NCBI GenBank assembly: GCA_036229005.1
Contig: JAZAMN010000002.1
Span: 32,001-96,000 of the forward strand
Source: Myxococcota bacterium
GTDB lineage: Bacteria; Myxococcota_A; UBA796; CAJQPC01
Direction of reading: 5' to 3'
DNA: 64,000 bases
The translations under genes were made by a program, and so were the position numbers. The notes beneath the pieces were generated by a model. The model ran no database searches. It saw only the letters and a list, made by a program, of their open reading frames with translations, and was not told the DNA's origin. Below are positions 48,579 through 52,054 of this stretch, piece after piece; within the stretch, counting starts at the first letter, position 1, and each line of letters begins with the position of its first letter.

Positions 48579-48584
48579 GCCCTC

Positions 48585-48590
48585 ACCCTA
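48585..48590 (-). promoter_or_regulatory. Putative -10 box TAGGGT 6 nt before sulfotransferase ATG
   Basis: TANNNT-N6-ATG. Confidence 0.5.
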
Positions 48591-48688
48591 ACGCCGTGAA
48601 CTGTGGGGTGACATGAGCCTGCACAGACTCTGCGCTTCGCCGGCACCTTGGGGCCCCCGGGGTCTCCCCCAGGGGCCAGGAGAGGAGG

Positions 48689-50053
48689 TCAGATGCAGCC
48701 GGTAGCGTCGCAGCTCAGATCCCCACCGCTGTACCCGCCGACCGCGTAGACATGGACATCCGCGGGGCTGTTGCCGGCGAAGTCCGTGTCGGTGATGCTG
48801 GCGGTGGCGTCGTAGAGCGCGATGGCGCCGTAGTGGCTGCCCAGGTTGTCGGTGAAGCTGCTGTCCACCACGCTCAGGTGGGGCGGCGCGGAGAAGCTCC
48901 CGAAGATCCGGACGGCGCTGCCGTAGGGGGAGCTGTTGTCCACGAAGTCGACGCCGTCCAGGGTGACGTCCTCGTAGGAGTAGATGGCGCCGCCCAGGGA
49001 GCTGGCGCTGTTGCCGTCAAAGAAGCAGTCGTAGAGCTCCAGCGTGCCCGAGGATGCGAAGATGGCGCCGCCCATGATGGCGCTGTTGTCCACAAAGTCC
49101 ACGCCCTCAAAGCGCACAGTGCCGGTGCTGTAGACCCGCGCCGCGCCTCCGTCAGCGGTGAAGCTGCTGCCCGTGGGGGTCCCGTTCCGGATCTCCAGGT
49201 CGTAGAACGCGGGGGAGCCGCCCGTGATGTTCAGGGCGCGCACGCTCCCCTCCCCGTCCAGCACGCTGCCGCCTGCAGGGTAGCCCTCGAGGTCCAGGCT
49301 GGTGCTGATGGTGGTCTCGCCGGTGTAGACGCCCTTGTAGAGGCTGATGGTCCCGCCTCCGGCGTCGACGGCGTCCTGAAGGGTCGCGTAGGGGGTGCCG
49401 TCGCGGAGCACGAGGCCCTGGCCAGAGAGCATGCCGTCGGCGTAGGCGAGCAGCTTGTCCATGGCGGACTGGCCGACGTAGGAGACGGCGTCGAGCTGGT
49501 TCAGGTCGCTGATGCTGCCCTCGCTGACGATGTTGCGGGCGGCGCGTGCGTCCAGCGCGACGTCGTGGTCCAGGGCGTCCTGGCTGAGGTTGTTGGCCAG
49601 ATAGAGCACAGCCTCGGCCTCGAAGGAGCCGACCAGCACGCCGAGCACCGACTCGCCGGTCATGCCCAGCGTGTCCTCGCCGTAGCCGACCAGGTCCTCA
49701 AATGCGCTGGGGCCGACGTAGGAGACCCCATCCAACTCAGCGACAGTGGTGAAGACGAGATCGTCGGAGGTGCCCTCCAGCCCGTCAGCTCCCGCGCGGT
49801 AGGTGACGATGTTCGCGGCGGCCCGGGAGTCCAGGGTGACGTCGTCGTCCAGGGTCTCCTGGTCCAGGTGGTTGGCCAGGTAGAGGGCGATGGTGGCCTC
49901 GTCGCTGCCCTCGGCGGGCACGGAGGACTTCACGGAGGCGACGGAGTCACCGGCCTGGTGGGCCATCTCAGCGGAGGGACCGCAAGCGACGAGGGTGGAG
50001 AGGGCGCCGAGGAGGGTGGCGGCGAGCAGAGGGGTGGTGGTCAGACGCTTCAT
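48689..50053 (-). CDS. Lipoprotein with two ComEA-like HhH repeats and C-terminal beta-helix
   Basis: LVAC; LYLAN..LD..LD.RAA.NIV..LD.VSYVG twice; GGAI/F.DN repeats. Confidence 0.82.
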   Translation of the reverse strand: MKRLTTTPLLAATLLGALSTLVACGPSAEMAHQAGDSVASVKSSVPAEGSDEATIALYLANHLDQETLDDDVTLDSRAAANIVTYRAGADGLEGTSDDLVFTTVAELDGVSYVGPSAFEDLVGYGEDTLGMTGESVLGVLVGSFEAEAVLYLANNLSQDALDHDVALDARAARNIVSEGSISDLNQLDAVSYVGQSAMDKLLAYADGMLSGQGLVLRDGTPYATLQDAVDAGGGTISLYKGVYTGETTISTSLDLEGYPAGGSVLDGEGSVRALNITGGSPAFYDLEIRNGTPTGSSFTADGGAARVYSTGTVRFEGVDFVDNSAIMGGAIFASSGTLELYDCFFDGNSASSLGGAIYSYEDVTLDGVDFVDNSSPYGSAVRIFGSFSAPPHLSVVDSSFTDNLGSHYGAIALYDATASITDTDFAGNSPADVHVYAVGGYSGGDLSCDATGCI

Positions 50054-50198
50054 GGGTCGTTCTCTCAAGGGTCGTTTTGGTGAGCCGCAGATTCGTTCTC
50101 GGACAACGGAGGAGGGACTCGTCGGAGCCGCTGCGGACCTGATTTCCTTTGTCGGGGGCGGAACGCGGGCTGGGGTGTGCAGCTTTCAGTTTTTTTTT

Positions 50199-50995
50199 AT
50201 GGGGGTCTCGCGACCCCCCTGAACCCCAGCGGAGCTGGGGTCACCCCCCGCGGGCTCTTCGAGGGGGCAGAAGCGGAAGTACTCCTCGGCGCGTCGGCGC
50301 GGCTGCGCCGCTTCTTTGGCTTTGTCGGAGTCCTTCCGGCCCCTCTACGAGCCGGCTGCGCGCGCAGGGTTGCGCGCAGCAACCCCGGCTGTGGCTGGGC
50401 TGAGGAAGCGGCTGTGCGACTCGCGCGCCCCCCCTGAACACCAGCAGAGCTGGGGTCACCCCCCGCGGGCTCTTCGAGGGGGCAGAAGCGGAAGTACTCC
50501 TCGGCGCGGGCTCTTTTTGTATGGGGGTCTCGCGACCCCCCTGAACCCCAGCGGAGCTGGGGTCACCCCCCGCGGGCTCTTCGAGGGGGCAGAAGCGGAA
50601 GAACTCCTCGGCGCGTCGGCGCGGCTGCGCCGCTTCTTTGGCTTTGTCGGAGTCCTTCCGGCCCCTCTACGAGCCGGGTGAAGGCGCAGGTTTGCGCACT
50701 TCACCCCCCGGCCGTGGGAGGGCGGAAGCAACCAGCCGGCGCGCGCCCGCCCTGACCCCCCGCGGGCTCTTCGAGGGGGCAAAAGCGGAAGCTCCCCTCG
50801 GCGCGTCGGTGAGCCGGCAAGCCGACTCACGCTTTGGCTTTGTCGGGGAGCTCCCGGCCCCTCTACGAGCCGGCTGCGCGCGCAGGTTTGCGCGCAGCAA
50901 CCCCGGTCGTGGGAGGGCGGAAGCACAGTGCGACCGTTTTATGGGGGTCTCGCGCCCCCCTGAACCCCCCGAAAGGGGTCCGGTCGAGGGTTCAG
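50199..50995 (-). repeat. Array of structured GC-rich repeats (3 near-full and 2 partial units); candidate ncRNA or REP-like element
   Basis: 50199-50355 matches 50521-50677 with 1 mismatch; further units at ~50421-50508, ~50755-50935 and 50941-50995; compensatory stem changes. Confidence 0.9.
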
Positions 50996-51082
50996 TCCGG
51001 ATGCTCGGGCGAGGATCGATCGCCGCCGCCTCGAGCCTTCGTGGTACGAGAGCCACCCCTCCCCCGTGAGCGAGACCCCCGC

Positions 51083-51982
51083 ATGCGCGGCTTGAACACC
51101 AGATTCTTCAACGCGCTGAGCGACGGCTTCCTCCGTCCGATCCTCGACCGGGTCCACCTCGACCGCACCCTGTGCCTCGAGCTCCGCGACGACTACCTGA
51201 ACGTCTACTACCGGGGAGGCAACCTCCTGCGCCTGGGCCGCAGCGGTGACGCATACGCCGCCACCTTCGACGTGAAGTACGCCAAGGGCACCCCGCTGGC
51301 CCACCCCGCCTCCGCCGTCCGCGAACCGGAGCACGTCCGCGCCTGGCTCGACGCCATACCCCACCTCAAGCTGGCGATGGACCTCTACATGGGCCACCAC
51401 CCAAAGGAGGAGCGCGAGATCCAGCAGCTCATCGCCCGCGACAACAACATCGGCAGCGTCAGCCGAGCCACCGACTACTACGTGTGCGACATCGAGTACG
51501 CGAACGCCCACGGTCGCTTCGACTTGGTAGGGGTCCACTGGCCCTCCACCGGCACAGACCGAAAGCAGAGCGACGGGCGCCGCCTGGTGATCGGCGAGGT
51601 GAAGCAGGGTGACAAGGCCCTCTCCGGCAAGGCGGGGCTGCACGCCCACCTACGCGACGTCGACGGCTTCCTCTCCGACCCAGGACGCCTGGCCGGCCTG
51701 CAAGAGGAGATGGTCACGGTCTTCAACCAGAAGCGCGCCCTTGGCCTTGTCAACTGCGGCCGCGACCTGGGGTCCTTCAGCGCCGAGCCCCCGCTCTTCC
51801 TGCTCATCCTGGCGAACCACGACCCCGACAAGACCAAGCTGCGAGGGGAGCTCGCCACGCTCCCCCGCGCCAAACACTGCGAGCTCCGCGTCGCTACGAG
51901 CTCGCTCGTCGGGTACGGGCTCTTTGACCCGGGCCTGCTCACGATAGAAGAGGTGCTCGCGAGGCCGGAGACCAGCTTGTAG
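51083..51982 (+). CDS. Putative PD-(D/E)xK restriction-endonuclease-like protein
   Basis: EREIQQ helix, DIEY, RFDLV, IGEVK; N-terminal LRDDYLNVYYRGGNLL; more A/T-ending codons than neighbours. Confidence 0.7.
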   Translation: MRGLNTRFFNALSDGFLRPILDRVHLDRTLCLELRDDYLNVYYRGGNLLRLGRSGDAYAATFDVKYAKGTPLAHPASAVREPEHVRAWLDAIPHLKLAMDLYMGHHPKEEREIQQLIARDNNIGSVSRATDYYVCDIEYANAHGRFDLVGVHWPSTGTDRKQSDGRRLVIGEVKQGDKALSGKAGLHAHLRDVDGFLSDPGRLAGLQEEMVTVFNQKRALGLVNCGRDLGSFSAEPPLFLLILANHDPDKTKLRGELATLPRAKHCELRVATSSLVGYGLFDPGLLTIEEVLARPETSL

Positions 51983-52054
51983 CGGCCTGGTCCTCAGGGT
52001 CCACCCGCTGCAGACCTGATGCCCTCAAGAATCGCTGGGGCCACGCCAAGTGCC

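Follow-up and report, generated by a model that had tools for sequence, protein, structure and literature searches.

A tandem array of covarying hairpins in a Myxococcota draft genome: one site of a genus-level, gene-less mosaic repeat with probable mobility

The window analysed here is a stretch of 64,000 nucleotides (G000:C2:32001-96000) from the 6.4-Mb draft genome G000 of a Myxococcota bacterium (70% GC, 74 contigs, 94% complete). It was compared with three congeners, G001, G002 and G003, all four genomes being related and from uncultured organisms. The feature under study is a mosaic array on the minus strand (50190..50995), delimited by repeat families and a module map and built from a modular unit of ~200 nt in three full and two partial copies. 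It is bordered by a lipoprotein-like gene with a beta-helix/POMP-repeat C-terminus (48689..50053, minus strand), a neighbour outside the element, and by an ORF of 299 aa (51083..51982, plus strand) that displays a PD-(D/E)XK-like motif, as judged by eye, is sporadic in distribution and appears to be a bystander.

Repeat families of 88 nt (four copies), 195 nt (two copies, at 94%) and 90 nt (three copies) make up the array, in agreement with the original prediction of three near-full and two partial units of ~190-230 nt. Read on the minus strand, to which all following modules belong, it begins with a terminal module and continues with head-to-tail units of H1 hairpin, core and terminal module, so that the module map contains three cores, three H1 hairpins and one 3'-half core. 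The 5'-most terminal module (50942..50994) combines a variant first hairpin (50961-50994) with a GCGA-tipped second hairpin (50942-50960). The first unit follows with an H1 hairpin (50873..50898), whose inner GCGCA/TGCGC is conserved and whose outer stem is variable, and with a core of the long-hairpin variant (50765..50871, tip g(CTTG)c) that comprises a 5-bp stem, a GTA/GAA 3x3 loop, a G-C stem, an 11-bp covarying stem and a conserved internal loop. The second unit has an H1 hairpin with outer stem GGGTGAAG/CTTCACCC (50676..50706), a core with tip c(GCA)g (50575..50675) and a terminal module of two hairpins and an A-rich tail (50513..50565; hairpins at 50522-50565 in the module map). After a partial copy consisting of the 3' half of a core and a degenerate terminal module (50421..50508), the third unit displays an H1 hairpin (50355..50380), a core again tipped with c(GCA)g (50253..50353) and the 3'-most terminal module (50190..50243; 50200-50243 in the module map), which ends in GACCCCCAT and a 9-nt A run.

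The lipoprotein gene has orthologues in G001 (59% identical) and G002, in both cases at another locus that lacks the array. In all three congeners murB lies less than 100 nt from a sulfotransferase gene, which marks the 3.4-kb stretch of lipoprotein gene, array and nuclease-like gene (window 48579-52054) as extra in G000. The lipoprotein gene itself appears to have been relocated from the region of G000 C57:74700-74900. The 299-aa ORF matched no Pfam, NCBIfam or PADLOC entry and had homologues in three of 153 other genomes of the order. None of these was flanked by such repeats, and the ORF was therefore rejected as a mover. Two of the three homologues were followed by an ORF resembling a hydrolase of the metallo-beta-lactamase fold (by eye), possibly forming a defence pair.

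The type-A core is composed of a 5-bp stem, a 3x3 loop of the form G-N-A/G-R-A, an 11-bp stem, an asymmetric internal loop and a tip hairpin of variable size. The internal loop, GACAAAGCCAAAG opposite CGACGCGCCGA (AAGCC-AAAG / GACGCG), kept its sequence in four genomes while the stems turned over. A second subtype (type B), absent from the window, displayed a 15-bp stem and the same internal loop in a shorter version. The inner hairpin, taken for CGGCGC/GCGCCG in the original prediction, is actually GCGGC-NNN-GCCGC with a 3-nt loop; in seven of seven type-B copies its five pairs are invariant and the loop varies. Single arrays mixed both core subtypes.

Covariation was assessed on 14 type-A cores from three genomes and one metagenome contig. 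Nine of the 11 main-stem pairs were altered on both sides. The exchange of ACTCC/GGAGT for CTCCCC/GGGGAG noticed earlier was right, and so was the swap in the outer stem of H1. Across these cores 91% of cells were paired, a value reached by none of 500 shuffles and compared with 41-52% in slid controls; the structure was drawn from the same related sequences, so that these figures are not a probability. The G-U-type pairs fell on one strand of the cores. All 14 cores displayed G-N-A/G-R-A in the 3x3 loop, distributed as GUA/GAA (three), GGA/GAA (five), GGA/GGA (four) and GUA/GGA (two), the conserved form being G(T/G)A opposite G(A/G)A. The bacterial loop E motif is a conserved GUA opposite GAA. 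Here that combination was restricted to three cores, all of them in the window, and the GUA/GAA loop cannot be called conserved, as had been claimed, nor the family assigned to loop E.

The BLASTN search and covariance model proposed with the original prediction yielded, respectively, 13 loci on six of the 74 contigs, supplemented later by one copy at the end of contig C54 and a degenerate end module on C52, and 17 cores in G000. The same model counted five cores in G001 and one each in G002 and G003. Neighbours of the copies were unrelated genes, whose stop codons were often directly abutted (according to gene calls by codon score). Loci clustered by contig (p 0.002 by length, 0.0005 against repeat-network regions; 12 loci, with C4 counted twice and C62/C74 once). 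In G001 to G003 the position behind the core, taken by the terminal module in G000, was occupied by a different hairpin tipped with c(GRA)g, which indicates that modules are exchanged. The contig ends C62:1-375 and C74:46060-46555 overlap within one array, which would thus sit between divergent groES-groEL and dnaK-dnaJ (named by eye from their translations). At L002:1575-1600 (G001:C30), a GGAGG of this companion hairpin may be the ribosome-binding site of the next gene, whose likely ATG begins 5 nt further on.

Outside the genus, the core model was run on samples of the order, class and phylum (150 genomes each, overlapping, with 35 candidates scored per genome) and returned only weak matches, of which one in G019 was judged homologous by eye, one in G141 was possible and the rest were attributed to chance. 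A loose pattern over 154 genomes of the order gave mostly noise, as judged by a reversed control. In scans of sequence collections, 10 of 17 metagenome matches and four of 23 genome matches were real by eye, and all resembled the copies of G001 and G003. Four scans of viral contigs gave zero, one (chance), zero and zero matches, and plasmids and phages gave only short ones (E 0.7-0.8). The Rfam search that had been suggested produced no match, with none of 4227 families at its gathering score and the best E-values (0.11-0.15) far below gathering scores. No description of the family was found in the freely accessible article texts covered. A related mosaic, with G-run end hairpins and GAA tips, was seen in another genus of the same family (L133, L137 and L138, from G019 and G015).

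Some orthologous sites were empty. In G000 only 6 bp separate the two genes that enclose the G001:C4 copy, the element at G001:C23 is absent from G000, and the copy at G001:C124 is an in-frame insertion that adds about 50 codons to a conserved ORF. One site was common to G000 and G001, with the same downstream gene and the same orientation, and none was common to all four genomes. The sites displayed no terminal inverted repeat and, at 13 of them, no consistent target duplication; flank matches were no longer than in mismatched pairs, element boundaries being approximate. A 7-bp flank match at G001:C4 was considered as a target duplication and rejected as within the null. The window site, C62/C74 and G001:C30 lie between divergent genes, unlike most REPs. 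We consider it very probable that the family is a mobile non-autonomous repeat. The original prediction had set its RNA reading against a known REP or MITE family scattered genome-wide; the scattered pattern was found, and no named REP or MITE family was matched.

The minus (folding) strand folded better in 16 of 17 copies. The stable c(GGA)g tip of the terminal module's first hairpin (50190..50243) is on the plus strand. For the unit at 50510-50740, the z-score of the fold as RNA was -4.4 on the minus and -3.0 on the plus strand. Since the bias was the same under RNA and DNA parameters, it does not name the molecule. Counting against DNA, the window copies gave stronger z-scores with RNA parameters (-7.8 and -5.3) than with DNA parameters (-2.0); energy models were unable to separate DNA from RNA. 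The locus was absent from the three metatranscriptome runs searched, which speaks neither for nor against its expression. On the few contigs with a clear third-position GC skew (C54, C4 and C74), the folding strand of every copy was the C-richer one, the direction of replication being only inferred there.

Hairpin tips point to DNA. Among 25 scorable rows of 27, inner-hairpin tips were c(GNA)g in 16, c/g(CNNG) in three, c(AAA)g in two and other in four; they occurred on different stems, and counts from related copies overstate the evidence. Long variants were tipped with c/g(CNNG), and the companion hairpin beside all seven G001-G003 copies also displayed a GNA-type tip. As an internal control, the repeat network of the genome was set against terminator-like hairpins: c(GNA)g tipped 68 of 416 network hairpins and one of 46 terminator-like ones, and c(UUCG)g one of 416 and six of 46, although network copies are not independent. 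In the portions of the literature consulted, mini-hairpins of the form GCGNAGC/GCGNNAGC are credited with an extraordinary stability in DNA that is lower in RNA and are placed at ssDNA priming sites (PMC13037366), and cGNNAg, cCNNGg and gCNNGc are given as DNA tetraloop classes (PMC10085684). The same holds for reports that single-stranded attC sites also display a G-T bias and purine-rich loops on one strand (PMC5027507) and that RNA screens also return ssDNA motifs (PMC5737381). The two RNA tetraloops named in the original prediction each occurred once: UUCG was closed by U-G and read c(GAAA)g on the plus strand, and G(CUUG)C was replaced in other long copies by c(CCTG)g or c(CTTG)g. Neither molecule is favoured by the GCGA/GCAA tips and the tandem G-A loops, which fit RNA as well as DNA. 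The earlier inference of selection on a folded minus-strand RNA thus stands as far as a fold kept on one strand, more than a symmetric palindrome, is concerned; RNA as its form is weakly supported, given that DNA parameters give the same bias, loop E is not conserved and GNA triloops of the DNA type prevail at the tips. That the fold matters as DNA is suggested by its c(GNA)g tips, and DNA is probably its selected form. An RNA screen would then be misled by the covariation, the G-U bias and the apparent loop E of the family, and a census of tip loops against terminators would be a cheap discriminator between DNA and RNA.

Candidate movers were sought among the genome's enzymes and repeats. A single repeat network, which includes some IS remnants, comprised 230 of 2327 intergenic regions of at least 60 nt in G000, namely 80 of 259 convergent, 67 of 1241 tandem and 11 of 711 divergent regions, a REP-like placement, and 72 of 116 regions at contig ends (region types rest on the codon-score gene calls made here). 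Pfam profiles for Y1_Tnp, for Y2_Tnp (with a control that was likewise silent) and for the reverse transcriptase RVT_1 found no match in G000 (94% complete). The Y1 result proved misleading, because a profile built from 27 order-level Y1 frames retrieved five RAYT-like paralogues, divergent in sequence and carrying the HUH and Tyr motifs, L202-L206 (C21:19780-20583, C24:38089-38889, C27:37209-37985, C32:32302-33138 and C52:40968-41744). Their products were 49-69% identical, matched NCBIfam NF047646 below its cut-off (E 4e-9 to 1.6e-7) and resembled E. coli TnpA-REP 4ER8 weakly (E 0.095). GIY-YIG gave one match, in a 612-aa frame. Four of the five genes each clearly adjoined a separate inverted array in which short direct repeats are strung together, and the one on C27 lay beside a remnant cut by an IS; these arrays matched 97 of the 230 network regions.

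RAYT-like genes were also found in relatives (three in G001, five in G002, up to 18 matches in G021) and none in G003, though that genome has a core. The core model gave no match at 29 RAYT-like loci, no convincing match at 30 Y1 loci and none at six tyrosine recombinase (integrase) loci. The family shared a region with RAYT-type arrays at three of ten testable sites, not above the network average. Assembly breaks at repeats mean that a sixth RAYT-like gene could be missing. An imperfect TGTC..GACA palindrome lay within 150 nt upstream of 16 of 24 RAYT-like genes against 36 of 3939 others (L202-L236; the pattern was drawn from the same sequences). Both the core and the companion hairpin contain CGACA as well, which is no more than a hint of a tie to that motif. 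That a RAYT-like enzyme is or was the mover of the family seems to us somewhat short of an even chance.

Two other hairpin families were noticed in G000. One is a mosaic with a module like a four-way junction and c(GGA/GAA/GCA)g tips, often at contig ends (C46:33900-34500, C47:46400-47700, C70:85550-86100, C71:197850-198950 and C17:4330-5364). The other displays a c(GRA)g tip, a G-run/C-run end hairpin and a variable long hairpin (C7, C12, C16, C20:148180-148330, C23, C30, C37:35380-35658, C48 and C62:117970-118256).

The array is best explained, with a probability of roughly 0.55, as one site of a genus-level, gene-less mosaic repeat that occupies mostly different sites in four genomes and keeps its pairing on one strand: a REP/BIME-like mobile DNA, non-autonomous, that would fold in its single-stranded state and offer its internal loop for recognition to an HUH nuclease (Y1, RAYT-like) acting in trans. 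Of this explanation we infer the DNA form, the enzyme and the reading of the loop by a protein, the last from the fixity of AAGCC-AAAG / GACGCG while the stems turn over. TnpA-REP handles ssDNA strand-specifically, according to the part of PMC8266576 consulted. Copies would spread by cut-and-join on single strands, for the most part to nearby sites, and arrays of n units plus one end would arise as terminal modules recombine with one another. With insertions elsewhere being purged, most surviving copies would lie between gene ends or directly behind them, and any effect on mRNA would be secondary.

RNA as the selected form was judged unlikely. The element would then be a mobile repeat that folds in transcripts, as a 3'-end stabiliser or processing site of the kind suggested for ERIC and REP, or else a unit that multiplies through RNA in the manner of a SINE. 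The one-strand G-U-type pairs, the stronger RNA z-scores of window copies, the GNRA-compatible GCGA/GCAA tips, and the sharp 3' end with its A-rich tail and solo 3' modules are consistent with it. So is the contact with stop codons, and at four of the five sites in tandem or intragenic position the element runs in the direction of transcription, but the G003 copy is anti-oriented, and at convergent sites the 3' end faces a gene of the opposite strand whose mRNA would carry the worse-folding strand. In the text of PMC3733652, as far as consulted, a function as RNA is deduced from the G-T pairs of REPs and from where REPs lie; here, GNA triloops dominate and GUA/GAA is limited to its three cores, while neither an RVT_1 match in G000 nor a consistent target duplication accompanies the repeat. 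An RNA gene acting in trans from multiple copies, with the conserved loop binding a ligand or protein, was regarded as very improbable. It would account for a conserved internal loop within covarying stems and for at least one core in each genome of the genus; it fits poorly with copy numbers of one to 17, with the lack of a common site and of an Rfam match, with a copy inside a reading frame, and with an array in which a consensus scan found neither a sigma-70-like promoter nor a minus-strand hairpin-plus-U terminator. The array had also been proposed as the leader of the lipoprotein gene, whose strand it shares about 140 nt upstream of the start codon. This is largely refuted by the G001 orthologue, which keeps a similar proximal leader and has no array, and since other copies flank unrelated genes, a cis-acting leader is hardly tenable.

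Two further readings concern the means of spread. Hairpins might be recombination-prone sites without a dedicated enzyme, spreading by local gene conversion, slippage and repair and resisting removal by their stable DNA tips. Clustering on few contigs, subtype mixing within arrays that lie side by side with other repeat families, and the lack of a linked enzyme and of a defined 5' end all suit this account, which we nevertheless hold to be improbable, as it leaves unexplained both an asymmetric internal loop that is invariant across four genomes and insertion at sites without an earlier repeat. Rather doubtful, too, is a new class of non-autonomous elements that would be recognised at the internal loop, moved as ssDNA in a rolling-circle-like manner by an enzyme not yet linked to repeats, and able to carry neighbours such as the relocated lipoprotein gene. 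Such elements, with their multi-branched DNA fold, would be the bacterial counterpart of non-autonomous Helitrons, a reading that rests on the fixed 3' hairpin end, the variable 5' end and the head-to-tail multimers.

If the REP/BIME-like reading is right, a complex covarying ssDNA fold is added to a class in which most of the members studied so far form simple hairpins, and the enzyme can be sought among five RAYT-like proteins with a defined substrate whose loop is conserved. The family is narrow, and no long-standing question is answered by it alone.

Among known systems, ERIC/IRU-type MITEs share with the family a long imperfect hairpin and, in an E. coli copy, two short motifs of loose similarity flanking the inner stem at its base (PMC2759123, in the part consulted). 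The terminal inverted repeats and TA duplication of such MITEs, as given in the accessible parts of PMC2759123 and PMC2267715, are lacking in the family, and the resemblance to ERIC was dropped after the core model gave no match to the ERIC copy of E. coli. With attC sites and ssDNA origins (partial texts of PMC5027507, PMC13037366 and PMC5737381) the family shares a strand-biased fold, G-T pairs, purine-rich loops, GNA tips and a size-variable terminal hairpin. It differs from attC in having neither RYYYAAC/GTTRRRY end boxes, nor a cassette array, nor a core beside the six tyrosine recombinase genes, and from ssDNA origins in that no plasmid motif of Rfam is matched. The RAYT-like proteins of G000 recall TnpA-Y1 subclass 2.1, or TIRYT, in being long Y1 proteins with a C-terminal extension (PMC6006769 and PMC3733652, as far as consulted), a tentative assignment made without a tree; they are flanked not by the hairpin family but by short direct repeats in inverted arrays. 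A cognate RAYT gene flanked by the repeat, as in a REPtron, was likewise not encountered at the RAYT-like and Y1 loci.

REP/BIME elements remain the closest counterpart. According to the portions of PMC3733652 and PMC8266576 consulted, they too are gene-less, intergenic and multi-copy, form tandem mosaic arrays in local clusters, carry G-T pairs on one strand, abut stop codons and occur in genomes with RAYT-like genes, and the family agrees with them in placement near gene 3' ends. It differs in having only 17 cores in G000 and no flanking RAYT gene, in a multi-branched unit of about 200 nt where the text of PMC3733652 describes a REP palindrome of 20-50 nt, and in lacking inverted doublets, the sole inverted pair of terminal modules being at C57:106322-106859. 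The unpaired terminal GTAG or CGTC tag of REPs, taken from the text of the same paper, also sets the two apart, as GTAG/GGAG and CGTC/TGTC are internal to the fold of the family.
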